The position numbers and the translations under genes were made by a program. Source: Clostridiales bacterium (GTDB lineage Bacteria; Bacillota; Clostridia; Christensenellales; Aristaeellaceae). From it: a DNA stretch of 32,000 nt. Positions 3,866 through 31,898 of this stretch are shown here, piece by piece; position 1 is the stretch's first letter, and the number at the start of each line of letters is the position of its first letter. The notes beneath the pieces were generated by a model. The model was not told where the DNA came from and ran no database searches. It worked only from the letters and a program-made list of their open reading frames with translations. The DNA lies in contig SVGT01000013.1 of NCBI GenBank assembly GCA_015056175.1, positions 6,984 through 38,983 of the forward strand, given 5' to 3'.

Positions 3866-5413
3866 TCAGCGCAATTCCTCCGGGGAGGCTTCACAGAGCC
3901 CCTGTGCGTTCAAAAGCAGGATGCGCCCCGGCCACATGTCCATCAGCTTTCGGTCGTGGGTGACGCAGAGCACCGCGCCCGGGAAGGACACGATCATCTC
4001 CCGGAACACGGGGGCGGACAGGGGCGACAGATTGCGGGTGGGCTCGTCCAGCACCAGCACGTTGGCCTGGGTGAGGATCATGTGCAGCAGAAGCAGCTTG
4101 GCCTTCTGCCCGCCGGAAAGATCCCGGATGGGATGGGTCATTTCGTCCCGCGTCAGCTTCATGGCGCCCAGGTACGTGCGTATCTTGGTCAACTGCTCCT
4201 TATCGCCCCGGGTGTGGAGGAACTGAATGGGAGTATGATCCTCCGGCAGCAGCTCCTCGTAGCGCTGGGGCATGTACACGGCGCGCAGATCCTGTCGGGC
4301 GGTGAGATGGGCGGCGATATGACGCAGCAGCGTGGTTTTGCCGCAGCCGTTGTCGCCCAGGATGATCACCTTTTCCGGGCCGGTCATGCGCAGGAAGATA
4401 TTGTCCGCCAGCAGCCGATCCTCCGTTTCCAGGCGGGGAACATGCATTTCCAGCACCGTTTTGCCCGCGGGGACGGTGTTATCGCCCTCAAATGCGGCGT
4501 CGATGGCGTATTCCACGTTGGGGCGCTGGGTTTGATCCTCCCTTTCCCGTTCAAACCGCTTTTCCAGGGATTTGACGGCCTTCATTTTCTTTTTCAGCAG
4601 CCGCCCGGTGTGGGGATCCTGACGGGAAACGGAGGCCTGCGCGTGCTCCACGGCCTGCTGGATGCGGTCGAACTTTTCCTGACGGATGCGCTCCTGACGG
4701 CGCTCGTTTTGCGCCTGCTGCTCCTGCTGGGCGATGGCGCGGGCACGGGTCGCCATATAGGTATCGTAGGAGGTGCGGGAAAGCGTCCAGCGGGGGGTGG
4801 TTTTATGGTAGGCCATTTCCAGATGCAAAACGCCTGTGGCCGTGCGGGAGAGCAGCGTTTCATCGTGGGAGATAAAGAGCACGGGCAGATGGCAGGTGCA
4901 CAGAAAATGCTCCAGGAAGCGAAGGGTGGGAAGATCCAGATCGTTGCCCGGCTCGTCCAGAAGCAGCATGGTGGGTTCCTGCGCAAGCACCAGCAGCAAT
5001 TGCAGCTTGACCTTTTCGCCGCCGGAGAGCGTTTGCAGCATCTGGGAGGAAAAGGGGAGCGAGGGATCCATGCGGAGCTGGGCGCACAGCCGGTTAAGAT
5101 CAGCTGGCGAGAGCGCCTGGAAGGCGTCGCAGCGCATGCAGTATTCGTACACGGGCAGGGCGCGGCATGCTTCCGGGATCTCCTGGGGCAGGTAGCCCAG
5201 CTTTTCGCCGGGGGTATCGATGCGGCCCGTCACGCGGGCGTAGCCGGAAATCAGATTGGCATCAAAAATGGCCTTGAGCAGGGTGGACTTGCCGTTGCCC
5301 TCCTCGCCGATGAGGGCCAGACGATCCTGCCCGGACAGGGTAAAGGAAAGATCGTCAATGAGGACGCGCAGGTCTTTTTCGTGGGTGAGGGTCAGATTGC
5401 GTACAGAAAGCAT
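3866..5413 (-). CDS. ABC-F family ATPase (two ABC domains, no TM domain); candidate ribosome-protection (ARE) type
   Basis: Walker A GEEGNGKST and GDNGCGKTT; signatures LSGGEKVKL and LSGGQKAKL. A Q/R/E-rich interdomain linker is present (AIAQQEQQAQNERRQERIRQEKF...). 515 aa. An attenuator lies upstream. Confidence 0.9.
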   Translation of the reverse strand: MLSVRNLTLTHEKDLRVLIDDLSFTLSGQDRLALIGEEGNGKSTLLKAIFDANLISGYARVTGRIDTPGEKLGYLPQEIPEACRALPVYEYCMRCDAFQALSPADLNRLCAQLRMDPSLPFSSQMLQTLSGGEKVKLQLLLVLAQEPTMLLLDEPGNDLDLPTLRFLEHFLCTCHLPVLFISHDETLLSRTATGVLHLEMAYHKTTPRWTLSRTSYDTYMATRARAIAQQEQQAQNERRQERIRQEKFDRIQQAVEHAQASVSRQDPHTGRLLKKKMKAVKSLEKRFEREREDQTQRPNVEYAIDAAFEGDNTVPAGKTVLEMHVPRLETEDRLLADNIFLRMTGPEKVIILGDNGCGKTTLLRHIAAHLTARQDLRAVYMPQRYEELLPEDHTPIQFLHTRGDKEQLTKIRTYLGAMKLTRDEMTHPIRDLSGGQKAKLLLLHMILTQANVLVLDEPTRNLSPLSAPVFREMIVSFPGAVLCVTHDRKLMDMWPGRILLLNAQGLCEASPEELR

Positions 5414-5632: not shown

Positions 5633-6468
5633 CCCTGCTCGTGCCTGACGACGTCGCGAAGGGCGGCGATATGCGCACAGGTGGTGCCGCAGCAGCCGCC
5701 CACGAAGGAGGCATAGGCAAGCGCCGGGGTCATATCGCGGCCGAACATCTCCGGGGTATAGGGGCTTACCGCCTTGCCGTCCACCATCTGGGGAAGGCCG
5801 GCGTTGGGCTTGAAGAGCAGGGGAAGATCGGTATGCTGGCGGAAGGCTTTGAGCACGGGCAGGCAAAGCTCCGGCCCCATGGAGCAGTTGAGCCCCAGGG
5901 CAGCGGGATGGAGGGGAGCAAGCGCCTCCACCATATCGCAAACGGAATTGCCCATCATGGTTTTGCCCACCTTTTCAAAGCTCATGGACAGGTACAGGGG
6001 AAGATCGTACCTTACGGCGCAGCGGGCGGCCACGGAGAGCATATTGAGGTCGATAAACGTTTCCAGAAAAATGCCGTCGGGCTGCTCTTTGACGCCGGCT
6101 TCCAGCATCTGGGCGTAAATCTCCTCGCACTCGTCCTCTTCAATATCGCCGTAGGGCTCCAGAAGACCGGTCAGCGGGCCTATGTCCAGCAGCACTTTGG
6201 CTTTGCCCTGGGCGGCATCTTTGGCGATGGCCATGCCCTCCCGCACGGCCTGTTCCACCGTGTAGGCGGTGCGTTTGACCTCCGGGCCGTTGGCGCCGAA
6301 GGTGTTGGAGAGGATCATGTCCGCGCCGGCTGCAATCATATCCCGATGCACCTGGTGCACCAGATCGGGGGCAAGCATATTATAGCGCCACACGGGCTGT
6401 TTATCCTCCGTCAGCGCCCACAGGCTGGTGCCCATGGCGCCGTCAAGCAGGGTGATGTGCCGATCCAT
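5629..6468 (-). CDS. homocysteine S-methyltransferase family protein
   Basis: Start refined to 6468 (AAAGGAG, 8 nt, ATG). Reads MDRHITLLDGAMGTSLW, and the C-terminal GGCCGTTCAHIAAL provides the Zn-binding Cys pair typical of Pfam S-methyl_trans. Confidence 0.85.
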   Translation of the reverse strand: MDRHITLLDGAMGTSLWALTEDKQPVWRYNMLAPDLVHQVHRDMIAAGADMILSNTFGANGPEVKRTAYTVEQAVREGMAIAKDAAQGKAKVLLDIGPLTGLLEPYGDIEEDECEEIYAQMLEAGVKEQPDGIFLETFIDLNMLSVAARCAVRYDLPLYLSMSFEKVGKTMMGNSVCDMVEALAPLHPAALGLNCSMGPELCLPVLKAFRQHTDLPLLFKPNAGLPQMVDGKAVSPYTPEMFGRDMTPALAYASFVGGCCGTTCAHIAALRDVVRHEQG

Positions 6469-8983: not shown

Positions 8984-9753
8984 CAGATCTCCGGTTCCTC
9001 TCCGATGCAATAGGTGCGCAGCTTGTTGGCCGTGCGCTCCAAAGACCCTTTGCTGTCGCCCCAGGGCTTGTCCGCATTACGGTAGTCAAACTTGAGGGTA
9101 AAAAACTCCAGATCGCCCTCCAGCTTGGACAGGCTGCGCTCCATGAGCGCCTGGGTATCGCGGGCAAACTGCACAAGCAGATCGCCGGACAGGTGATCGG
9201 CCGCCAATTCCAACAGATCCGCAGCGTCCGGCACGCAGAGAAGGTCGCTTTGCGCATAGGCCGTGCGGAAGGCAGAATCCGTCTTGTACAGGTGCATCAG
9301 GGTGTAGCGGTAGCGCTCCATGTTTTCCTCGATGGAATCGCAAAGCAGGCAGGTGGAAACAGCTGCGCGGATGTGCTCTGCAGCGTCCCGGAGGGCGTTT
9401 TTGCCGTCCTTGTTGCCGGTCAGCTTCTTGCCAAGGGGCGCTTCGGCGCAGCCTTTGGCCGCCTTCTGGGCGTCGGCAAACAGGGGGGAGAGCTTTTTAT
9501 GGTTTTCCAGCAGATGGGTGTGCATCATCAGCGCATGACCCAGCCGGTTGCGCTGGTTGTACAAAAGCACCTGATGACGGGGGCAGAAGCCCTTCCGGTT
9601 TACCTGGATGCGGGTGTCCGGCTCCATCACCGAGCCGCCCAGGCACCGGTCCACGTCGGTGAGCTCAATCTTGTGCTTCAGGGCGCACAGCGGGCAGTGG
9701 CTTTGCTGCTTGAAGGCGTCCCAGACGGGGATGGTATCGATATGGTAACGCAT
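8983..9753 (-). CDS. Cys-rich hypothetical protein (I recall this as the DUF6062 family; needs an HMM check)
   Basis: The ORF-track start at 9759 is GTG. The ATG at 9753 has AGGAG 5 nt upstream. Reads MRYHIDTIPVWDAFKQQSHCPLCAL...GFCPRHQ...CLLCD. It is the first gene of a tightly packed minus-strand operon. Confidence 0.7.
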   Translation of the reverse strand: MRYHIDTIPVWDAFKQQSHCPLCALKHKIELTDVDRCLGGSVMEPDTRIQVNRKGFCPRHQVLLYNQRNRLGHALMMHTHLLENHKKLSPLFADAQKAAKGCAEAPLGKKLTGNKDGKNALRDAAEHIRAAVSTCLLCDSIEENMERYRYTLMHLYKTDSAFRTAYAQSDLLCVPDAADLLELAADHLSGDLLVQFARDTQALMERSLSKLEGDLEFFTLKFDYRNADKPWGDSKGSLERTANKLRTYCIGEEPEI

Positions 9754-12316: not shown

Positions 12317-13750
12317 ATGTCGGAACGGACAAAGGCGCAGGGCAGGTTTAACAAATGGCTCTGCGGACTGTTTGACAGTGAGATGTTTACCACCAAGGAA
12401 CTGCTGGGCATGTTTTTTCCCCTTTTGCTGGACCAGTTCTCCATCCACATTATCGGCGTTTTATCCTCCTCGCTGGTCTCCTCGGTAGGCCAGGAAGCCA
12501 TCGCTGCCGTCAGCATGGTGAACTCCATGGGCTTTCTGGTGACGGCCGTCATGTTCGCTCTGGGCGCGGGCGGCGGCGTGGTGATCGCCCAGGCCAAGGG
12601 CAGCGGCGATGAAAAACGGCTGCGCCATGCCGTGGGCAATACCACCATGCTGGCCACCGGCTGCATGCTGGTGCTCTCTACGCTGCTGTACACGTTTGCA
12701 GAGCCTGTGGTGGGGATCATCTACCCCAACGCCGAGCCCATCCTGAAGGAATACGCGGTGCACTACCTGAAGCTGAACATGCTCTCCCAGGTGCCCTACG
12801 CCGTGTTCCACGCCATTTTTACCTCCTTCCGCAGCGTGGGCGACAGCAAATCCTCCCTGGTGCTGACCATCTTCATCAACGTGAGCCATCTGCTTTTGTC
12901 CCTTTTGTTCATCAACGTGCTGGGCATGGGCGTGACGGGCTCCGGGCTTTCGCTGATCGTGGCCCGCTCCATCGGCTGCGTGGTGGCCCTGATCTGGATC
13001 TTCCGTCCCCGGGGCTACCTGCACATTTCCGTGCACGACTTTTTCAAGTGGGATTTGTCCACGGTGAAGCCCATTGTGAAGCTGGGCATTCCCTTCTGCA
13101 TTGAGCAGATTTTGTTCCAGGGCGGCATGCTGATGGTGCAGGGGTATCTCAGCTCCTGGGGCGATACGCCGCAGATGGGCACCATGGCCCTGGCGGCTCA
13201 CGCCGTGGCCTCCTCCCTGATGAACCTGTACCAGGCCAGCGCCAACTGCGTGACCACCATGACGGGCACGGTGTGCGGCCAGTGCATCGGCGCAGGCAAA
13301 ATTGAGCTGTGCAAGCGCTACAACCGCAGCATGATCAAGGGCGGCAGACTGGTGCTGCTCATCACCGTGCTGGTGCTCTTCCCGCTTTCTCCCCTGCTGC
13401 TCAAGCTCTACCACCCCAATCCCGACGCCATGGGCATCATCTACAGCATTCTGGCGGTGGCCGTGCTGCCCATGCCCATCGTGTGGTGCAACGCCTTTGT
13501 GACCCCCACCATGCTGCGCAGCGCAGGCGACGTAAAGTACACCACCTACGTATCGCTGCTGGTGATGGTGATCGGCCGCGTGGTGCTGGGCTACATCTTC
13601 ACCATTGTGTTCAACCTGGGCCCTGTGGGCGTGTGGCTGGGTATGCTGGTGGAATGGCTCATCCGCGTGGTGCTGATGGAAAAGCGCTTCAAGAGCGGAA
13701 AATGGACCGCCTTCATCGAGGAAAAATACAGGCAAAAGCCCGCAGGCTAA
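12317..13750 (+). CDS. MATE family efflux transporter (paralog 1)
   Basis: 477 aa with about 12 TM helices. MATE-like blocks are present (PLLLDQFSIHIIGVLSSSLVSSVGQEAIAAVSMVN, ...VGVWLGMLVEWLIRVV). RBS AAGGAAGG. Confidence 0.9.
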   Translation: MSERTKAQGRFNKWLCGLFDSEMFTTKELLGMFFPLLLDQFSIHIIGVLSSSLVSSVGQEAIAAVSMVNSMGFLVTAVMFALGAGGGVVIAQAKGSGDEKRLRHAVGNTTMLATGCMLVLSTLLYTFAEPVVGIIYPNAEPILKEYAVHYLKLNMLSQVPYAVFHAIFTSFRSVGDSKSSLVLTIFINVSHLLLSLLFINVLGMGVTGSGLSLIVARSIGCVVALIWIFRPRGYLHISVHDFFKWDLSTVKPIVKLGIPFCIEQILFQGGMLMVQGYLSSWGDTPQMGTMALAAHAVASSLMNLYQASANCVTTMTGTVCGQCIGAGKIELCKRYNRSMIKGGRLVLLITVLVLFPLSPLLLKLYHPNPDAMGIIYSILAVAVLPMPIVWCNAFVTPTMLRSAGDVKYTTYVSLLVMVIGRVVLGYIFTIVFNLGPVGVWLGMLVEWLIRVVLMEKRFKSGKWTAFIEEKYRQKPAG

Positions 13751-13879: not shown

Positions 13880-13915
13880 GGAACTTGCACAATATGATGG
13901 AGGATGAGATTTTTT

Positions 13916-15349
13916 ATGTCCGAACTGACGCCTGCGCGCGGCCCCAGGGGTAAATTCAACGGCTGGCTTCACCGCCTGTTTGACAGCGAAATGTTTACGA
14001 CCGGGGACATCCTGCGCATGTTTTATCCGCTGATGCTGGATCAGTTTGCCATTCACCTGATCATGACGCTGAGTACGTCGCTGGTGTCCTCGGTGGGTCA
14101 GGAGGCGCTGGCTGCCGTCAGCATGGTGAACACCCTTTCCTATGTGGTGACGGCCGTGATGTTTGCCCTCAGTGCGGGCGGCGGCGTGATCATCGCCCAG
14201 GCCAAGGGCAGCGGCGATGAGGACAGGCTGCACAAGGCCATTGCCACCACGGCCATGATCTCCTCTGCCGTGATGCTGGTTTTGTCCATCACGCTGACGG
14301 CGTTGGCAGGGCCTATCATTGAGCTTTTGTATCCCCACGCAGAGCCGCTGCTCAAGGAATACGCCGTGCACTATATGCGCCTGAACATGCTCACCCTCTG
14401 GCCCTTCTCCATTTTCCACGTGATCTTTACCGCCTTCCGCAGCGTGGGCGACAGCAAATCCTCCCTGATTCTGACGCTGTACATCAATATCAGCCATCTG
14501 CTTTTGTCCCTTCTGTTCATCAACGTGCTGGGCATGGGCGTGACGGGCTCCGGGCTTTCGCTGATCGTGGCCCGCGTCATCGGCGCCATTGTGGCCATGG
14601 TGTGGCTCTTTGGCCCCATGGGCAAGCTGCACATGAAGCCCCGGGCGTTTCTGAAGCTGGATAAAAAGATGGCAAGGCCCATCCTGCGCCTGAGCATTCC
14701 CTTCTGCGCAGAGCAGATGCTCTTTGAAGGCGGCATGGTGGTGGTGCAGGGGTACCTGAGCACCTGGGGCGATACCCCCGAAATGAGCACCATGGCGCTG
14801 GCGGCCCATGCGGTGGCCTCCTCGCTGGTCAGCCTGTATCAGGCCACCGGCTACTGCATCACCCAGATGACCAGCACGGTGTGCGGCCAGTGCATCGGCG
14901 CGGAGAAGATCGACCTGTGCAAGCGGTACAACCAAAGCATCATCAAGGGCGGCAATCTGATCTACCTGATCACGGTGCTGGTTTTGTTCCCCCTGACGCC
15001 GCTGCTGATGAAGCTGTACAACCCCAACCCCGACGCGCTGGGCATGATCTACGTGATGCTGATGGTGGGCGTGTTCCCCATGCCGCTGATCTGGTGCAAA
15101 TCCTTTGTCACCTCCACCACCATGTGCGCCGCAGGCGACGTGAAATTTGCCACCTACGTATCCTTTGTGGTGATGCTCATCGGCCGCATGGCGCTGGGCT
15201 ATGTGCTGACCATCACGCTGAACCTGGGCCCGGTGGGCATCTTTATCGGCATGCTGGTGGAATGGCTGTTGCGCATCCCGGCGGTGGAATGGCGCTACAG
15301 ATCGGGCAAGTGGCTGAACTTCCTCAAGCAGGAAAAGGCGGCCGGTTAA
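13916..15349 (+). CDS. MATE family efflux transporter (paralog 2)
   Basis: Start refined to 13916 (MSELTPARG..FNGWL aligns with MSERTKAQGRFNKWL of paralog 1). It is collinear with paralog 1 over its whole length. Confidence 0.9.
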   Translation: MSELTPARGPRGKFNGWLHRLFDSEMFTTGDILRMFYPLMLDQFAIHLIMTLSTSLVSSVGQEALAAVSMVNTLSYVVTAVMFALSAGGGVIIAQAKGSGDEDRLHKAIATTAMISSAVMLVLSITLTALAGPIIELLYPHAEPLLKEYAVHYMRLNMLTLWPFSIFHVIFTAFRSVGDSKSSLILTLYINISHLLLSLLFINVLGMGVTGSGLSLIVARVIGAIVAMVWLFGPMGKLHMKPRAFLKLDKKMARPILRLSIPFCAEQMLFEGGMVVVQGYLSTWGDTPEMSTMALAAHAVASSLVSLYQATGYCITQMTSTVCGQCIGAEKIDLCKRYNQSIIKGGNLIYLITVLVLFPLTPLLMKLYNPNPDALGMIYVMLMVGVFPMPLIWCKSFVTSTTMCAAGDVKFATYVSFVVMLIGRMALGYVLTITLNLGPVGIFIGMLVEWLLRIPAVEWRYRSGKWLNFLKQEKAAG

Positions 15350-17267: not shown

Positions 17268-17312
17268 GATTTAGTCACCTCTGACGGAGGAAGTTTGATG
17301 GCGTGGGGACTT

Positions 17313-17971
17313 GGGGCTGTCCGCCCCAAACCCCGACCAGGAGGCTGAGCCTCCTGGACCTGCAGTGTTGGACGGACAAGCGTTATCATCCGGATTGCTT
17401 CCCAATGCGGCGGGCACTGTAGGGCGGGGGCTTGCATGCCTTTTTTGTTTGGGAAAAATGAGCGGATTTGTTGGGACATGTTGGAGCGATCCGCCGTTTT
17501 TTCCGTTTACGGAAAAAACGGGAACTTCATCGGCCAAGACCGTGAGAGAATGCATTCTCTCCACGGCTTGGATCGATGAAGGAGGCGCAGACGCGCAAAG
17601 CGCGTCCTGCCCCGGCGGATCGCCGCAGCGATGAATGTTGTTTTCAGATAAAAACAAGGGGACTGGTTGCGATTATAACAACAAGAAATAAGCGGAGCGG
17701 CAGCGGGAAGCTGACAGGAAATGTGTACAACCATGTCCGCTGCTGTGGGTGCAGGGGAACGGAGCCGAAGCGCGCCCTGGCCGGGCGGATCGCCGTAACG
17801 ATGAGTAGGGTTGGGGTATCTTCTCTACTGTTTTATCGGGAAATAGTATGAAATATCTTGTACCTGTGTCCGAAACGGTGGGTCAAGGGTGCTCAGCACC
17901 CTTGTAGGGGTCCAGGGGGCAACGCCCCCGGAAGTCCCTGCCGGGGGGGTGTGGGGCTGAGAAAGCCCCAC
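17313..17971. repeat. copy A of an ORF-free, hairpin-dense intergenic element of about 650 nt (unclassified; structured RNA or MITE-like)
   Basis: It shares ordered blocks with 29821-30461: 43/43 nt (17336-17378), 19/19 nt (17417-17435), 58/60 nt (17472-17531) and the right-end block (17933-17971). It has many perfect hairpins and no RBS-preceded ORF. Confidence 0.75.
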
Positions 17972-18023
17972 AAAGTCCCCGTTACGGGAGAAATGCAATC
18001 CTGATTTGGGCGAAAGCGAAGCG

Positions 18024-21473: not shown

Positions 21474-21641
21474 TATCATAGCAAAAATAACTGCATTATA
21501 AATACTGCAAACAAAACTCTTATCGCTGGATGCAAAAATAGCATCATCCCTTCCGATGGAAGTGTGACAATTCTCGGAGATTCTGCATTTATAGATTGTA
21601 GTGCAATAAAAACAGTTGGTCGAGTTGACTTGAAAATTTAG
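21474..21641 (+). pseudogene. start-less fragment of a BspA-type leucine-rich-repeat (LRR_5) surface protein gene
   Basis: The frame open from 21444 to the TAG at 21639-21641 has no ATG. It reads YHSKNNCIINTANKTLIAGCKNSIIPSDGSVTILGDSAFIDCSAIKTV, which matches the LRR_5 pattern (..IP.sVt.IGd.AF..Cs.l..). Confidence 0.4.
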
Positions 21642-21694
21642 ACTTTCTGCAGTATAATATATTATGAATTTTTATGCTTAGGAGGTGACTGCGA

Positions 21695-22777
21695 ATGGAA
21701 TATTTGGTTTCAGAATATCTCGCATCCGAGACCATAGACCCACTTTTCTTGGTGGGAGATGCTCTTGATGTATTAAAAAATATTCCAGATAACAGCATTG
21801 ATTGTTGTATAACAAGTCCTCCTTATTGGAACAAGAGACAATATGCAAATGGCGGAATAGGTCTGGAAAAGGATTACAATGACTATATTTCCGCACTTGT
21901 TGAAATATTTATGGAAGTACACCGAGTATTAAAACCAACTGGTTCTTTCTGGCTCAATATTGGCGATACTTACCACAAAAAATCATTGCTCAATATTCCT
22001 TGGAGAGTTGCAATTGAATTGACTGACCGAGGGTGGATTCTTCGTAATACTGTCATATGGAACAAAGTAAAAGGCGGTTTAGATAATACTGAAGACCGTT
22101 TAAGAAACATCTATGAACCTGTTTTTCATTTCGTAAAAAAAGCAAAGGGATATTATTACGATATTGACAGTGTAAGAAACACACCGCAAAGCACAAAGGT
22201 TGTAAAAGGTGCAGTGGTCTCTGCGACAGGGGTTACGGGTGTTAGCTACAAAAGAAAAATAGAGTTATCAACTGTGCTGACAGATGAGCAAAAGAAGAAT
22301 GCTTATGCAGCACTTGAGGATATGCTGGAAAAGGTCCGTCTTGGCGAAGTGTCAGATTTTAGAATGATAATCAAAGGAGCTCAGCGAACCACTCATTCTG
22401 ATTCTGAAAAGGTTTCCGGTCGTGCAAAGGAACTGCATGAAAAAGGATTCTATTTCTTAAAGTGCAATCCTAAAGGGAGCAAACCCTCCGATGTTTGGGA
22501 TATACTGCCAGAAGATACTCAAAAGCGAACCACTCATTTTGCACCTTATCCAGAAGATTTGTGCCGAACACCAATTATACTTACCTGTCCCAAAGATGGT
22601 GTTGTACTTGACCCATTTGCAGGAACAGGAACCTCTTGTTTGGTTGCATTAGAATACAACAGAAAATCAATCGGCATAGAAATCGCAGATGAATATGTGG
22701 TAGCTGCCAAAGAAAGATGCCAAAAGAAGGTGGAAGATTATGAGCAAAGTCAAAGAACTATTTGGGATTTATTGTAG
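21695..22777 (+). CDS. type II DNA methyltransferase, beta class (N4-cytosine or N6-adenine; SPPY favours m4C)
   Basis: Motif IV is DCCITSPPYWN near the N-terminus and motif I is VLDPFAGTGTSCLVA near the C-terminus (IV before I, so beta order; Pfam N6_N4_Mtase-like). RBS AGGAGG. The DNA is AT-rich. Confidence 0.9.
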   Translation: MEYLVSEYLASETIDPLFLVGDALDVLKNIPDNSIDCCITSPPYWNKRQYANGGIGLEKDYNDYISALVEIFMEVHRVLKPTGSFWLNIGDTYHKKSLLNIPWRVAIELTDRGWILRNTVIWNKVKGGLDNTEDRLRNIYEPVFHFVKKAKGYYYDIDSVRNTPQSTKVVKGAVVSATGVTGVSYKRKIELSTVLTDEQKKNAYAALEDMLEKVRLGEVSDFRMIIKGAQRTTHSDSEKVSGRAKELHEKGFYFLKCNPKGSKPSDVWDILPEDTQKRTTHFAPYPEDLCRTPIILTCPKDGVVLDPFAGTGTSCLVALEYNRKSIGIEIADEYVVAAKERCQKKVEDYEQSQRTIWDLL

Positions 22778-23576
22778 TGAAAATGCAAATGTGACTGGTG
22801 CTCTCGCCTCTCAAATCTGTCCATACTCAAATAAAAAGTGCTATAAAACGAGAAAAAGTGACCCCGATACTGCAATAGGCACTTGTACTGTTTCGTATCA
22901 AAACAAAGACATTATTATCTGTCCTAATCGTTTAACGGAAAACAGTCAAATATTTATGGATTGCATCCATCTCCTCACATTGCACGAACCAGGCAATGAA
23001 CTCTATGTTCTCCCCGAAATTTCAATTCCTGGTGGCAATGTTGACTATTTCCTTGTTTCTGTGAAAGATGGCAAGGTAAAAGATTTCATTGGAATTGAAC
23101 TGCAGACCATGGATACAACAGGCACAGTTTGGCCTGAAAGACAGAAACTGCTTAATGAATACGGCATTGCCGTTGATGAAGCAGATGTTAGAAACACAAA
23201 GTCTTTCGGAATGAACTGGAAAATGACTGCAAAGACCATTCTGATTCAGATGCACCACAAGACAAAAACATTTGAGAATTTGAACAAGCATCTTGTTCTG
23301 ATTATTCAGAAACCGTTTTTTGAATACATGAACAGAGAGTTTTCGTTCGCTCACATAACCGGTGCCAGAATTGGAGACTCCGCACATTTCCATTCTTATG
23401 ATTTTAAGAATATTGGTAATAGATTAAAACTGACCTTGGACACCAGAGTAAGTACAGATTCTGATGGTATTTTTCAATGTCTCGGTCTTAATGCCGAAGC
23501 AAACGTTGCACTCGAAGATATAATTGCAACTCTTGAGAAAAAACTAAGTGAAGAGTATCTGCTCAGACTGCAATAA
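22740..23576 (+). CDS. type II restriction endonuclease, NotI-family-like
   Basis: It overlaps the methyltransferase gene by 38 nt and has RBS GGTGGA 5 nt upstream. The N-terminal Cys cluster is ICPYSNKKCYK...GTCTV...ICPNRL and the block IGIELQTMDTTG follows. These resemble the CPF..C.K..GVC..CPNR and LEIQTMDFHG blocks I recall from NotI. Confidence 0.7.
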   Translation: MSKVKELFGIYCSENANVTGALASQICPYSNKKCYKTRKSDPDTAIGTCTVSYQNKDIIICPNRLTENSQIFMDCIHLLTLHEPGNELYVLPEISIPGGNVDYFLVSVKDGKVKDFIGIELQTMDTTGTVWPERQKLLNEYGIAVDEADVRNTKSFGMNWKMTAKTILIQMHHKTKTFENLNKHLVLIIQKPFFEYMNREFSFAHITGARIGDSAHFHSYDFKNIGNRLKLTLDTRVSTDSDGIFQCLGLNAEANVALEDIIATLEKKLSEEYLLRLQ

Positions 23577-23577
23577 A

Positions 23578-23603
23578 AGCGGGTCCATATGGACCTGCTT
23601 TTT
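23578..23603 (+). terminator. rho-independent terminator ending the R-M cassette
   Basis: AGCGGGTCC-atat-GGACCTGCT followed by TTTTT. Confidence 0.8.
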
Positions 23604-25671: not shown

Positions 25672-26298
25672 ATGGCTCGAAAATGCCATAACGGCTGCGG
25701 ATATGCATGCGGCGGCTTTGTGCCGTGGAACGGCTGCGGGAATACCTGTGGGAATACGTGTGGGAATACCTGCGGGAATACTTGCGCAAATACCTGTGTC
25801 AACGGCTGCACGGAGGCTTTCCGGTTTGATCAGAATTGTCCCTTTCAGGGCAGCTGTCCCTATCCCATGACCTTTGAGGAAATGCTGCAGCTGCTCCGCA
25901 CGCTGCGCTACGGACGGCTTGCGGTGTGCGCAAACGGCCAGAGCTACGTGACGCCGGTGTGCTTTTCCATGCGCCGGTGCGAGGATACGCCCATCTTTAC
26001 TTTGCGGCTGCGCACGGACGGCTGCATCGCCGGACATCTGGAAAACGGCACCCAGGTCACCTTGCAGTTTGACCGGATGGTGAACGGCGGCGTGTGCACC
26101 GTGCAGGCTATGGGTCAGGCTTATGTGACGGGCAGCACGGGGTGCGTGGCCATTGTGGAGGTACGCACGGACAGCATGATGGGCGAGTGCTACCGCAATC
26201 AGGGCTGCGGAAACAACTGCGGCAACAATTGCGGGAACAACTGCGGGAACAATTGCGGCAATAACTGCGGAAATCCCTGCGAAAACCCCTGCAAGTAA
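25672..26298 (+). CDS. pyridoxamine-5'-phosphate-oxidase-like (split-barrel flavoprotein) domain protein flanked by CGNx Cys-rich repeats
   Basis: The N-terminus reads GCGNTCGNTCGNTCGNTCANTCVNGC and the C-terminus GCGNNCGNNCGNNCGNNCGNNCGNPCENPCK. The core (MTFEEMLQLLRTLRYGRLAVCANGQSYVTPVCF...VTLQFD...) resembles the Pyridox_ox_2/PNPOx-like fold. Confidence 0.7.
   Translation: MARKCHNGCGYACGGFVPWNGCGNTCGNTCGNTCGNTCANTCVNGCTEAFRFDQNCPFQGSCPYPMTFEEMLQLLRTLRYGRLAVCANGQSYVTPVCFSMRRCEDTPIFTLRLRTDGCIAGHLENGTQVTLQFDRMVNGGVCTVQAMGQAYVTGSTGCVAIVEVRTDSMMGECYRNQGCGNNCGNNCGNNCGNNCGNNCGNPCENPCK
25746..25820 (+). repeat. 12-nt periodic coding repeat (CGNT x ~6)
   Basis: The units are tgcgggaatacc / tgtgggaatacg / tgtgggaatacc / tgcgggaatact / tgcgcaaatacc / tgtgtcaacggc. 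The differences among the first four (CGNT) units are all synonymous; the last two degenerate to CANT and CVNG. Confidence 0.85.
26206..26292 (+). repeat. 12-nt periodic coding repeat (CGNN x 5, then CGNP and CENP)
   Basis: The units are tgcggaaacaac / tgcggcaacaat / tgcgggaacaac / tgcgggaacaat / tgcggcaataac / tgcggaaatccc / tgcgaaaacccc. Confidence 0.85.
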
Positions 26299-28565: not shown

Positions 28566-29750
28566 TCACTCCCAGTGCGCTTTGGTTTTGTGCATGTGAT
28601 CCAGCACGAACTGTACAAACATTTCGGCGCCGTAGTGCAGACCGCTTTCGTCGATCTGCCACAGCGGGGAATGGGCGGGGTATTTGCAGCCCGTTTCTTC
28701 GTTGCGCAGGCCCAGGCCGAACAGCAGGCCCGGCTTGTGCTTTTCATAATAGGCAAAGTCCTCGCCGCCGGGAGAGGGCTCCAGCACGGCGACCTTGTCC
28801 GTCACCTTGGCGGCGGATTCAAGGAACATATCGTACATCTTGCTGTCGTTATAGGCGGGGGGCAGGGGATCCTGGGCGAAGGTCACTTCGCCCGTGCCGC
28901 CCATGTCGTCACAGACACTTTTCACCAGACGGCGGATGCGCTCCTGCATTTGATCGCGGGTGGATTCCTTGAGGCAGCGCATGGAGCCGCGCATGTGGCA
29001 AAAATCCGGCACCTGGGCGATGGTCTTGCCGCTTTCCATCACGCCCACGCCCAGCACGCAGGTATCAAAGGGGTCTACCTCCCGGCTGATGAGGAACTGC
29101 AGCCCGTCGTAGATCCTGACGCCCATGGCCAGGGCGTCCTTGCCCAGATGGGGCGCTGCCACATGGGCGGCCTCGCCGTGGGTCGTGATCTCAAAGGCGC
29201 AGGAGGTGGCGTTGGTGATGCCGCTGCAGGAATTGATGACGCCGGTCTTTTCCACGCAGTTGACGTGGCACATGATGATGCAGTCGATATCGTCCATCAC
29301 GCCGTGCTTGCACATCACCTGTGCGCCGGAGGGCTTGTTTTCCTCGCAGGGCTGGAACACCAGCCGCACGCGGCAGGCCAGCTTGTCCTCGATTTCCTTC
29401 AGCGCCTTGGCGGCGCCCAGCAGCATGGCGGTGTGGGCGTCGTGACCGCAGGCGTGCATCTGGCCGTCGATCTTCGAGCGGAAGGGCAGGCCGTTTTCCG
29501 CCTCCTGGATGGGCAGCGCGTCCATATCCGCACGGATGCCGATGGTGAAAGCGGCGTCCTGCCTGCCCAGGGTGGCGACCACGGTGTTGCGGCCGTATTT
29601 TTCAAAATCATAGGAAATGCCCAGCTTGTCCATCTCGCGGCGGACAAGGGCGCTGGTTTTGTCCAGATCCCAGCCGAGCTCCGGGTACATGTGCAGCTCC
29701 CGGCGGAGGGCAACAATATAGTCCTGATCGACCTTGAAAGGAATGTGCAT
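28566..29750 (-). CDS. M20/M20D family amidohydrolase (N-acyl-amino-acid/hippurate-hydrolase type)
   Basis: Start refined to 29750 (AGGAGG, 5 nt, ATG). LRRELHMYPELGW...IGIRADMDALPI...HACGHDAHTAMLLGAA...VFQPCEE...HSPLW are the typical M20D blocks. Confidence 0.9.
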   Translation of the reverse strand: MHIPFKVDQDYIVALRRELHMYPELGWDLDKTSALVRREMDKLGISYDFEKYGRNTVVATLGRQDAAFTIGIRADMDALPIQEAENGLPFRSKIDGQMHACGHDAHTAMLLGAAKALKEIEDKLACRVRLVFQPCEENKPSGAQVMCKHGVMDDIDCIIMCHVNCVEKTGVINSCSGITNATSCAFEITTHGEAAHVAAPHLGKDALAMGVRIYDGLQFLISREVDPFDTCVLGVGVMESGKTIAQVPDFCHMRGSMRCLKESTRDQMQERIRRLVKSVCDDMGGTGEVTFAQDPLPPAYNDSKMYDMFLESAAKVTDKVAVLEPSPGGEDFAYYEKHKPGLLFGLGLRNEETGCKYPAHSPLWQIDESGLHYGAEMFVQFVLDHMHKTKAHWE

Positions 29751-29784: not shown

Positions 29785-29813
29785 ATGATACACCGAAACG
29801 GCAAATTGCGCAA
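29785..29813 (-). promoter_or_regulatory. candidate promoter of the M20 operon, between the gene and repeat copy B
   Basis: On the minus strand: TTGCGC (29813-29808), 17-nt spacer, TATCAT (29790-29785). Confidence 0.45.
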
Positions 29814-29820
29814 GCCTTGC

Positions 29821-30461
29821 GGGGGCGTTGCCCCCTGCACCCCTACCAGGAGGCTGAGCCTCCTGGACCTGCAGTGTTGGACGGACAGGTCTGATCGATT
29901 GAGATGTTTCCCAATGGGACAATACGGGGAAACGGAATGAAAAATGAAGGAATGAAGCGTGCCATGCGGCACATGAAGCACGTTCCTTTAGAACGCGTTG
30001 CGGCTTTACAGCCGCTGTAGGGCGGGGGCTTGCTCCCGCCACTTTGTTTGGGAAAAGCCAATGGGTTGAGTGGGACATGTTTGAGCGATCCGCAGTTTTT
30101 TCCGTTTACGGAAAAAACGGGAACTTCATCACCAAGAGCAGGAGCAAATGAATTTGCTTCCTGCCTTGGTTGATGAAGGAGGCCAGACGCGCAAAGCGCG
30201 CCCTGGCCCGGCGGATCGCCGTATCGATGAGTAGGGTCTCTTTCCGGCAACAGTGTTTCACGGGGAAAATGCATGTGGAACGGTGTACCTGTGTCCCGAA
30301 TGGCGGGTGCAGGGGGACGGAGCCGAAGCGCCGCCGGTGGCGGATACAGCGAGGCGGAGGAGTCAACCGAAACGAGCGATCGACCGGCAGGGAGAGCGCG
30401 ACGATTGAGGTTGCGGAAATCAGTACCCTGCCTGGGGGTAGTGGGGGCAAGGAGCCCCCAC
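29821..30461. repeat. copy B of the ORF-free, hairpin-dense element of about 650 nt
   Basis: It has the same block order and orientation as 17313-17971, with identical 43-mer 29845-29887, 19-mer 30015-30033, 60-nt block 30071-30130 and right-end block 30422-30461. It carries an extra segment of about 90 nt (29917-30014). Confidence 0.75.
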
Positions 30462-30492
30462 AAAAAAACCCCGCCTTCCGAAGAAGACGGGG
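30462..30492 (-). terminator. rho-independent terminator of the ROK gene
   Basis: On the minus strand: CCCCGTCTTC-ttcg-GAAGGCGGGG followed by T7, directly abutting the right end of repeat copy B. Confidence 0.8.
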
Positions 30493-30515
30493 TGAAAATA
30501 CCGCTTGAGGATGAA

Positions 30516-31898
30516 TTAGCCGATGGCGGGCAGGGAGGCAGCAGCCACGCTCTGGCCCACGCGGCGGGACTTTTCGTCCGGGATGTGCAGCTTGCACTTT
30601 GCAGCCAGCTCGGGGAATTCGGCGTCCAGAACTTCCTGAGCCTTCTTCAACAGCAGCGCGCCGCCTTCGCCGGAGGTCACGCGGCCCATGATGAGCACGT
30701 GGTCGATATCATAGAAGCGGCTGTAGTAGGCGATGGCATAGCCGAAGTACACGCCGATGGATTCGTAGATCTTGGCGGCTTCGGGGTTGCCGGCGATCAT
30801 TTCCTTCTGCACGACCTTCAGCTTTTCGGCGGGGGAGAGGCTCTCATCCAGCTGGATACCGGCAGCGGGAGCCAGCTTGATGACGGCGTCCTGAGAGAAG
30901 TACTTCACGCCGCAGCCGTAGTCGCCGGACCATTCGTCCACCATGGCGTTCTTGCAGGCGTCAACGGGGGCGAAGGCCAGTTCGTTCAGCCAGCCGGTGA
31001 TGTTCATGTCCTTGTCCACGAAGCCGGCAGCTTCGGAGGTACCCATGGCCACGCCCAGCACATTGCCGCATTCCAGATCCATAGCGCCGGCCAGAGCGGT
31101 CACGTCGCCGTCGTTGGCCACTTCGATCGGGATGTTTTCGCCGATTTCCTTGGCCACGTCGATGTACATGTTCTTGACCTTCTTGTCAAAGTCTTCCTTG
31201 CCCACCTTCAGGAACAGGGAAGCCACCATGATGCGGTTGTCAATGTACACGCCGGCGGAGGATACGCCGATGGCGTCCACGCGGGGCATATGGGAGGCAG
31301 CGGTCTTCATGGCGTCCAGGATGCCCTGGTAGTGATAGTCGGGATCGGACTGGGTCTTGGGGAACCAGACCACTTCTTCGCTGTACACGCTTTCGCCGTT
31401 GATCACAGCGCTGACCTTGCGGTCGGATCCGCCGGCGTCAAAGCCGATGCGGCAGCCGTCCAGATGACGGCCCACGGAGGAAGCGGCCTCGCGCTTGACG
31501 GAGATGCACTTGGGGCAGGCAGCTTCCAGCACTTCGAAGGGCTTTTCGTACACGGTGGACATGAAATCGGCGTCAAAGTAGCGGGAGCCGCCTTCGGCAT
31601 AAGCAGCCTTCAGGTGCTCGTACACGGCCTTGGAGCCGGCCACGGTGATCTTGTAGCCGCCGCGGGACCACAGCATGGTCTTGATCAGACGGTCCAGCAG
31701 GTCCACGGTGCGCTCGGTTTCCACGCCGTCGGGCAGGATCTGCATGCGGTAGTAGTCGCAGTAGCCCTGGTTACGTTCCACGTTCACGCAGAAGTCCACC
31801 TTTTCGGGGGCGGCGGCCACGTCCTTTTCATACTCGCGCAGCACAACGCTCATGGGCATAAACTGAGGATCGAGCGGGGCCTTCACTTTGAGTTCCAT
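30516..31898 (-). CDS. ROK family sugar kinase-like protein with an N-terminal extension
   Basis: IGFDAGGSDRKV (phosphate-1), AIGVSSAGVY, ANDGDVTALAG and GVAMGTSEAAGF are ROK/ASKHA blocks. RBS GGAGGG. Confidence 0.85.
   Translation of the reverse strand: MELKVKAPLDPQFMPMSVVLREYEKDVAAAPEKVDFCVNVERNQGYCDYYRMQILPDGVETERTVDLLDRLIKTMLWSRGGYKITVAGSKAVYEHLKAAYAEGGSRYFDADFMSTVYEKPFEVLEAACPKCISVKREAASSVGRHLDGCRIGFDAGGSDRKVSAVINGESVYSEEVVWFPKTQSDPDYHYQGILDAMKTAASHMPRVDAIGVSSAGVYIDNRIMVASLFLKVGKEDFDKKVKNMYIDVAKEIGENIPIEVANDGDVTALAGAMDLECGNVLGVAMGTSEAAGFVDKDMNITGWLNELAFAPVDACKNAMVDEWSGDYGCGVKYFSQDAVIKLAPAAGIQLDESLSPAEKLKVVQKEMIAGNPEAAKIYESIGVYFGYAIAYYSRFYDIDHVLIMGRVTSGEGGALLLKKAQEVLDAEFPELAAKCKLHIPDEKSRRVGQSVAAASLPAIG

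Follow-up and report, generated by a model that had tools for sequence, protein, structure and literature searches.

In the window analysed here, a 32,000-nucleotide (nt) stretch of a Clostridiales bacterium genome (GenBank assembly GCA_015056175.1, contig SVGT01000013.1, positions 6,984 to 38,983), two strongly folding intergenic blocks, which we call copy A and copy B, resemble each other. We found that copy B (647 nt, 29815-30461, no strand assigned) is a self-contained insert, because a relative carries an empty site at which the terminator T-run of one neighbouring gene directly abuts the -35 box of the other. As two hairpin-rich arms, inverted relative to each other, make up the frame of the element and smaller folded units are nested within it, copy B is probably a lineage-specific, non-autonomous foldback mosaic repeat, similar to miniature inverted-repeat transposable elements (MITEs) and bacterial interspersed mosaic elements (BIMEs), and would represent a new family in a narrow lineage of uncultured gut and rumen Clostridiales. 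The element occupies two gene junctions, and has since been altered by insertions nested within it, by tandem duplications and deletions, and by inversion between inverted repeats of its own.

Empty and filled sites at two gene junctions

Copy B is flanked by two minus-strand genes, one for an M20 peptidase, which starts at 29750, and one of the ROK family, which stops at 30516. The original prediction for this region was that copy B is bracketed by a terminator and a promoter and is therefore either a self-contained insert or its own transcription unit, and both bracketing signals were found, each in the flank outside the element. The intrinsic terminator of the ROK gene (30462-30492, minus strand; CCCCGTCTTCTTCGGAAGGCGGGG followed by T7) was independently listed by a terminator scan, as 30493-30468, and is kept in the related loci L055, L010 and L057. 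On the other side is a promoter-like site for M20 (29785-29813, minus strand; TTGCGC-17 nt-TATCAT), which was not listed by the promoter scan because it matches the consensus at only 8 of 12 positions. Its -35 and -10 boxes and their 17-nt spacing were retained in L055 (TTGCGT/TATCAT) and in L057 (TTGCAC/TATCAT), with diverging sequence in the spacer.

Orthologous loci were reached through the flanking proteins, after pattern scans had given no related DNA. Two of them were decisive for copy B. The locus L055, with M20 92% and ROK 95% identical, carries a related copy, C, and the locus L057, with M20 84% identical and the ROK C-terminus identical, is an empty site, in which the T-run of the ROK terminator is followed directly by CTTGCAC-17-TATCAT and M20 in a spacer of ~125 nt. 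At the filled sites, 647 nt (window) or ~830 nt (L055) of element stand exactly between the terminator and the -35 box, with identical flanks. The empty site thus reads ...GGGGTTTTT/CTTGCAC and the filled site ...GGGGTTTTTTT/GTGGGGGC...GCAAGG/CTTGCGC, where slashes mark the junctions. No duplicated target-site bases were identifiable in this empty and filled pair, in which the length of the T-run varies. The borders of copy B given above follow from the empty L057 and the filled L055, and differ by at most 6 nt from those predicted (29821-30461). In more distant ROK relatives the downstream genes are different and the element is absent; these relatives are uninformative for this locus. A Tn3-type miniature element, considered because the ends start with GGGG, was rejected, as there is no 5-bp duplication.

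Copy A (~673 nt, 17303-17975, no strand assigned) lies between the start of an ATP-grasp gene (17267, minus strand) and the stop of ychF (18024, minus strand), in the same orientation relative to the genes as copy B. The ychF/ATP-grasp spacer measures 756 nt in the window, 328-364 nt in the loci L058 and L059, and 15 nt (L060-63) or 27 nt (L074) in outgroups. L058 and L059 represent one lineage at 84% identity and hold short forms of the element at this junction, copies D (~310 nt) and E (~275 nt). The comparison of orthologous ROK-M20 and ychF-ATP-grasp intergenic regions that had been proposed together with the original prediction therefore found the element present in some relatives and absent from others at both loci, and fixed the ends of copy B. 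The bracketing by terminator and promoter, which had been taken as a property of the element, turned out to describe only the landing site of copy B, since copies A, D and E lie inside the ychF-ATP-grasp junction, where neither a terminator nor a promoter was detected on the gene strand around copy A. Both landing gaps are transcriptionally harmless, that of copy B being after a terminator and before a promoter and that of copy A being at an operon junction.

The ychF/ATP-grasp junction gathers different repeats in different lineages. In another lineage at 84% identity, represented by L075 (513-800; from a sample shared with L057), the spacer contains ~2.5 copies of an unrelated 87-nt tandem repeat (GGAAGTGACGAAYGTCACAGATGGCATGCTGATATTCTGCATCATGTCGTGGGACGGCGCATGCAGCAAATCAACAGGGACGAAA).

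Inverted arms and rearranged modules

The frame of the element is a pair of inverted arms of ~105 nt, the right arms being the inverse of the left arms. We aligned nine arms from five copies over this length. The plan was clearest in copies D and E, which consist of a left arm, a small core and an inverted right arm. Each arm contains, in order, a hairpin h1 (GGGGC-n-GCCCC), the spacer ACCCCTAC, a second hairpin h2, the motif ACCTGC.GT.TTGGAC, a variable stretch, and TTCCCAATG. Hairpin h2 has a 9-bp stem and a TGA loop, and all 63 of its 63 aligned pair cells are Watson-Crick, with no G-U. Six of its nine pairs showed two-sided (compensatory) changes and none showed one-sided changes, and none of 500 shuffles reached the observed covariation score.

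Inverted arm repeats were observed in copy A (17306-17373 versus 17868-17938), in copy B (29817-29857 versus 30420-30463), and over ~105 nt in D and E. An nhmmer profile of the arm identified the left arm of copy A at 17308-17410 (plus strand, E 1.4e-25), its inverted right arm at 17835-17933 (minus strand, E 2.2e-20), and the left arm of copy B at 29819-29918 (plus strand, E 1.4e-26), and found no match beyond the element loci across the 464 kb of DNA that was fetched. The right end of copy A repeats, in inverted orientation, the left ends of A and B.

In the left arm of copy B, h1 is GGGGGC-GTT-GCCCCC (29821-29835) and is followed by the spacer TGCACCCCTAC, by h2 with the form CCAGGAGGC-TGA-GCCTCCTGG (29846-29866), by ACCTGCAGTGTTGGAC, and by the variable stretch and TTCCCAATG. 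The right arm of copy B is degenerate yet recognisable. Its outer end (30419-30461, minus strand) consists of GTACCCTG, CCTGGGGGTAG and a terminal hairpin, GTGGGGGC-AAGGA-GCCCCCAC (30441-30461), that abuts the ROK terminator; this end is an inverted 70% match to 29817-29857 and is 91-99% identical to the corresponding end of the element in L055. Copy A has the same terminal hairpin at 17951-17971.

Between the arms of copy B is a central three-hairpin module, M (30086-30218, plus strand), closed by an invariant 8-bp helix of CGATCCGC (30086-30093) and GCGGATCG (30211-30218). Inside this helix lie the hairpins c (30096-30117), b (30124-30178), which is long, and a (30184-30207). Module M shares 82% identity with positions 17417-17634 of copy A. 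A comparative fold with RNAalifold, run on module M only and using A, B and the reverse complement of C (in which the module is inverted), gave a consensus of 57 pairs, of which 11 were compensatory. Next come module Y and the beginning of the right arm, which is degenerate (...ACCTGTGTCCCGAATGGCGGGTG-CAGGG; 30219-30315, plus strand); this stretch is 70% identical to copy A 17745-17889 and 82% identical to copy C. There is one X-Y module in copy B and there are two in copy A, inside which module X is duplicated, at 17588 and 17758.

The resemblance of A and B is far beyond chance, as the similarity blocks comprised 219 nt at 82% identity (E 5e-53), 96 nt at 81% (E 7e-20) and ~145 nt at 70%. 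Mismatches between the two copies fell evenly over codon phases (5/5/6 and 12/11/12) and indels were 1 nt long, indicating that the element is non-coding. Open reading frames (ORFs) that span it were not conserved between copies. One candidate small conserved ORF (MLERSAVFSVYGKNGNFI...) was rejected, as it has no ribosome-binding site, its reading frame is interrupted after 18 codons when A and B are compared, and it shows no codon-phase bias.

The five copies differ in size (275, 310, 647, 673 and ~830 nt) as well as in arrangement. In copy C the left arm is present twice in tandem, a further 253 nt are tandemly duplicated, and the central module is inverted relative to the arms; copy E has lost 34 nt between GATC repeats. 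In these respects the element behaves like DNA rather than like a gene.

Extra segments of copy B and a phage-borne unit

The original prediction described about 90 extra nt in copy B (29917-30014) relative to copy A, inside a long-range helix formed by TTCCCAA and TTGGGAA, and regarded this material as a variable-length domain of a large RNA. The extra segment is real: in the alignment of A and B, an 89-column gap in A falls between ...CCCAATG and CTGTAGGG, and the corresponding spot holds 3 nt in copy C and 9 nt in copy A. This first extra segment (29917-30014, 98 nt, plus strand) has a helix, P1, of AAGGAA and TTCCTT around GAAGCG-GTGCC-ATGC-GGCAC-ATGAAGCACG, and the two hairpins that had been described in it were located at 29959/29968 (GTGCC/GGCAC) and 30000/30011 (GCGGC/GCCGC). 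TTCCCAA is present at 29908-29914 and both motifs occur in copy A (17399 and 17449); TTGGGAA lies at 30049-30055, 2 nt to the right of where it had been placed. TTCCCAA is the inner end (TTCCCAATG) of the ~105-nt arm, which recurs inverted at the other end of the element, and in D and E the sequence that partners it, CATTGGGAA, forms the inner end of the inverted arm. Together with the resemblance of the 98 nt to a separate unit of ~110 nt, the inversion of the central module in one lineage, and the absence of both a wobble strand bias and an Rfam match, this argues against a variable domain within a conserved helix of one large RNA.

A second extra segment (30316-30418, plus strand) lies inside the second hairpin of the right arm, where copy C reads CAGGGTAC-TTA-GTACCCTG and copy B reads CAGGG, ~100 nt, and GTACCCTG. 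When copies A, B and C were compared with phage and plasmid collections by blastn, the only finding was that the 36-nt heart of this segment matches unannotated "phage" contigs from human faeces. Scans of viral contigs with three other blocks and with the arm pattern gave nothing or chance matches. The 21-mer GAAGCGCCGCCGGTGGCGGAT occurs exactly in 9 IMG/VR contigs and in MT836148, and in 12 IMG/VR contigs when its loop is allowed to be degenerate, often several times per contig.

These occurrences define a unit of ~110 nt, the U unit, which comprises a variable covarying helix P1 around a core, GAGGAAG, a long covarying hairpin P2, and the tail GACGGTG. The invariant core is GAAGCGCCGCC(R)G(Y)GGCGGAT-NN-AGCGAG, and its counterpart in the second segment of copy B is GAAGCGCCGCCGGTGGCGGATACAGCGAG (30322-30355). 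Among 11 copies of the unit, 23 of the 33 predicted pairs showed two-sided changes, and several pairs were U-G on the gene-sense strand. U units were located on gut contigs of phage-like or plasmid-like character, at L064-L073 and L077-L079, for example in L066 at 5197-5306 (minus strand) and 6296-6405 (plus strand), and at four sites in L068. There are up to four per contig, on the same strand as downstream genes for a replication initiator, a small terminase, SLT, and the PcfJ/DUF3102 cluster; SLT/CHAP lysin genes are also among their neighbours. The unit had no match in Rfam 15, and a literature search for its core sequence found nothing. We considered and rejected the conAn2 antiterminator RNA as an identity for it, as conAn2 regions are 260-600 bp long, poorly conserved, and present once per operon (PMC8191782).

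A covariance model of the U unit, R1, matched the core of segment 2 with 37.8 bits (E 1e-7 locally). It also matched segment 1 over the full length of the unit (29942-30048), weakly, with 19.9 bits and an E of 4e-4 in an 861-nt search or 0.08 in 195 kb. R1 had no significant match in copy A, and the possibility that modules X1 and X2 of copy A are diverged U units was unsupported (1.3-1.7 bits). The supposed variable domain is thus most simply taken as a nested copy of another small unit, an assignment that we make firmly for segment 2 and tentatively for segment 1.

The U unit itself may be an undescribed leader RNA or a single-strand DNA signal. It may also be the more valuable lead of the two, as it covaries, has no counterpart in Rfam and precedes genes for replication, packaging and lysis, and so could be a new regulatory RNA. 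A broader proposal, which we advance only tentatively and hold to be rather doubtful as a whole, is that Firmicutes contain giant foldback arms akin to doublets of repetitive extragenic palindromes (REPs), known as REPINs, that are mobilised in the form of folded single-stranded DNA and offer smaller structured units a place to insert, and that the U unit (GAAGCGCCGCCGGTGGCGGAT-NN-AGCGAG in a covarying helix) is a hitherto undescribed functional RNA, or a signal in single-stranded DNA, that clostridial phages and plasmids carry and that was captured in both inserts of copy B.

Proposed mechanism, alternative readings and other features of the window

If copy B is a mosaic repeat, an enzyme encoded elsewhere would recognise the hairpin-bearing arms and move or copy the element; no transposase or recombinase, including any Y1 transposase, is encoded among the proteins of the 32-kb window. 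Because the hairpins are perfectly Watson-Crick paired and there is no target duplication, we infer that the enzyme might recognise folded single-stranded DNA, as happens with REPs, REPINs and the ends of IS200/IS605. By analogy, the conserved loop and flanks of h2 and the adjacent CTAC/GTAG would liken the arms to the sites used by REP-associated tyrosine transposases (RAYTs) and by IS200/IS605, rather than to the ends of cut-and-paste MITEs. Any effect on neighbouring genes would be secondary, for example if the hairpins altered the processing or stability of read-through mRNA at copy A.

Several observations weigh against this reading. Two copies were seen in a single 32-kb window, neither a target-site duplication nor a partner transposase was found, and mobility is read from presence and absence alone. 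The left arm of copy A together with the 5' flank of the ATP-grasp gene (17280-17373) is 97-98% identical to L058 2562-2655 and L059 1460-1553, in contrast to 83% for ATP-grasp DNA, which hints at purifying selection or recent exchange and is unexpected for a purely selfish element. Many hairpins keep their pairing through compensatory changes, which would also be expected from selection on RNA. Module M has 9 G-U cells versus 3 A-C cells on the aligned strand, a count that is biased in that the structure was derived on that strand. Finally, a genome scan with CTGCAGTGTTGGACGGAC and a metagenome scan with its 17-mer gave only chance matches, and are uninformative on distribution, since this stretch is not conserved in the nearest relative.

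Like bacterial MITEs, such as Correia/NEMIS of Neisseria, ERIC/IRU of enterobacteria and RUP of S. pneumoniae (PMC3184786, PMC2229807), the element is small, non-coding and intergenic, has terminal inverted repeats, is present or absent at orthologous sites (here at both loci A and B), and would form a long hairpin if transcribed. Unlike them, it is large and composite (275 to ~830 nt), with arms of ~105 nt that bear conserved hairpins of their own; it showed no target-site duplication at one clean empty and filled pair, and has no known related transposase. With REPs, BIMEs and REPINs and their RAYTs (PMC2817692) it shares G+C-rich perfect hairpins after gene ends, alternating orientation, mosaics with other motifs, a GTAG/CTAC tetranucleotide beside the hairpin (ACCCCTAC-h2), and the lack of target duplication. 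Alternating units in extragenic mosaics were evident in the inverted end arms, in the tandem left arms of L055, and in the intergenic position of all copies. REPs are 20-40 nt long and occur in more than 100 copies per genome (PMC2817692), and the unit of the present element, at ~105 nt, is far larger; REP/RAYT systems are, moreover, known mainly from Proteobacteria (PMC2817692), whereas the host here is a Firmicute. In the arms, CTAC lies directly 5' of h2 on the arm strand, so that GTAG follows the hairpin on the other strand; compared with E. coli REPs, GTAG is on the opposite side of the hairpin. The BOX elements of Streptococcus pneumoniae are composed of the modules boxA-boxB(n)-boxC. 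They resemble the element in being modular, strongly folded intergenic repeats of a Firmicute, in which the end modules are fixed and the number of modules between them varies, but have no sequence similarity to it. In the element the modules are larger, those in the interior can be inverted, and the two ends are inverted copies of one another.

We regard it as unlikely that the element is instead a cis-acting part of the mRNAs of its minus-strand neighbours, kept because its hairpin arrays insulate, terminate, process or stabilise these transcripts as in E. coli REP/BIME. Its common orientation relative to the genes in both copies, the abutment of copy B on a terminator, and the stronger conservation of the gene-proximal arm and 5' flank than of coding DNA agree with such a role, and copy A, in the ychF-ATP-grasp operon junction with no detectable downstream promoter, must be transcribed. 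However, copy B is past a strong terminator and ahead of the M20 promoter and is thus in neither mRNA, relatives lack the element at both loci, and its interior has been free to expand, invert and lose parts. A cis-acting role would also concern a side effect, and is compatible with a mosaic repeat rather than opposed to it.

Less probable still, in our view, is the family of large structured non-coding RNA genes that the original prediction favoured, expressed from the plus strand, antisense to the flanking genes, with the extra 98 nt of copy B as a variable peripheral domain. Plus-strand folds were very stable (z -9.3 for B and -6.8 for A), but the minus strand fell equally far below its shuffles, the range for both strands being z -6.8 to -9.7. 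The plus strand is rich in purines and G (GC skew +0.18, AT skew +0.13 at 30001-30500). Compensatory differences between A and B were present in several hairpins, and the helix CTGCAG/CTGTAG has a G-U pair on the plus strand only; the census of mismatches in the inverted repeats, however, gave 16 G-T, 20 A-C and 59 others, so that overall neither strand favours wobble pairs. Weak plus-strand promoter-like sites to the left of both copies and a terminator-like hairpin at a homologous place in A and B (30021-30040 in B) were consistent with the claim that copy B is its own transcription unit. This claim is not supported, as the sole plus-strand promoter-like site beside copy B mirrors the M20 -10 box, which is near-palindromic, and the terminator-like hairpin does not recur in C, D or E; within the element, neither a promoter nor a terminator that is conserved among copies was found.

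The comparisons between loci also argue against an RNA gene. A relative whose flanking genes are 84% identical lacks the element at this locus, L055 has the central module inverted, and orthologous copies have duplicated some modules or lack them. Neither one architecture on one strand nor a strand-specific tolerance of G-U, as would mark a large stand-alone non-coding RNA, was seen. In Rfam 15, the window had no match at the gathering score, and both copies, searched at E up to 10, had only scattered chance matches; an ORF-less group II intron inserted after a terminator was likewise rejected, as no intron model matched at E up to 10. The large ornate RNAs OLE, GOLLD, ROOL and raiA, to which the element had been likened, each keep one architecture on one strand across many genera, and have Rfam models. 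The element resembles them in its length of ~600 nt, its intergenic position, its many hairpins and its lack of an ORF, and differs in having no Rfam match, in being rearranged between sister lineages, and in being absent from close relatives.

It is very improbable that the element is an invertible DNA switch (inverton), in which a recombinase flips segments to make the downstream gene phase-variable. As in gut invertons (PMC11892184), a segment immediately ahead of a gene is bracketed by long inverted repeats, and one module differs in orientation among lineages: the central module, delimited by CGATCCGC and GCGGATCG, is oppositely oriented in the window and in L055. In addition, two assemblies break inside the element, and L010 (ROK 95% identical) ends in terminator-T6-CCTTGGG, which equals an internal junction of L055 (~9399-9417) in the opposite orientation, as expected from inversion between two inverted copies of GGCGGGGTTTTTT. 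However, the evidence from L010 amounts to 7 nt, too short to decide, and assembly breaks are expected at long palindromes in any case. The inverted modules of B and C are only ~67% identical, indicating an old difference rather than a live switch, and the repeats that flank the central module are only 8 bp long. Unlike the gut invertons (PMC11892184), the element has no promoter that we found inside it (the M20 promoter is outside) and no invertase nearby, and its orientation difference is one between lineages; the neighbourhoods in the window and L055 contain no invertase or tyrosine recombinase, save a large serine recombinase of a separate island. We give least credence of all to a decayed prophage or plasmid regulatory region left in the chromosome, since, although copy B has two units related to the ~110-nt unit otherwise found on IMG/VR contigs by replication-initiation, small terminase, SLT/CHAP lysin and PcfJ/DUF3102 genes, these account for only ~200 of 647 nt, the arms and central module match nothing on viral contigs, copy A has no significant U-unit match, no phage or plasmid genes flank either copy, and the ends of the insert are clean and its arms inverted.

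In annotation, conserved intergenic blocks that are long and fold strongly are easily mistaken for large RNA genes. Here it was the comparison of orthologous loci that revealed a mosaic DNA repeat, which advises caution when ornate RNAs are predicted from two paralogous copies. Descriptions of intergenic repeat families in uncultured gut and rumen Clostridiales are scarce, and a family with hairpin-bearing arms of ~105 nt, nested units and no target duplication would mark genome change at the strain level and offer a lead towards the enzyme that mobilises it.

Three other features of the window were observed. A low-GC island at 21500-23600 (36-40% versus ~60%) encodes an N6/N4 DNA methylase (21695-22777) and a NotI-like restriction endonuclease (22740-23576), and is probably a horizontally acquired restriction-modification system. 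An ORF of 208 amino acids (25672-26298, plus strand), with no match in Pfam, has cysteine-rich tetrapeptide repeats at both ends (CGNTCGNTCGNT... at the N terminus and CGNNCGNNCGNN... at the C terminus) and an unrepeated middle; these tetrapeptides account for the 12-nt periodic repeats D3. Tandem paralogous genes for MurJ/MatE-type transporters (Pfam) at 12317-13750 and 13904-15349 (plus strand), 73-77% identical in DNA and offset by 1608 nt, appear as the repeats D1, D2 and D5.

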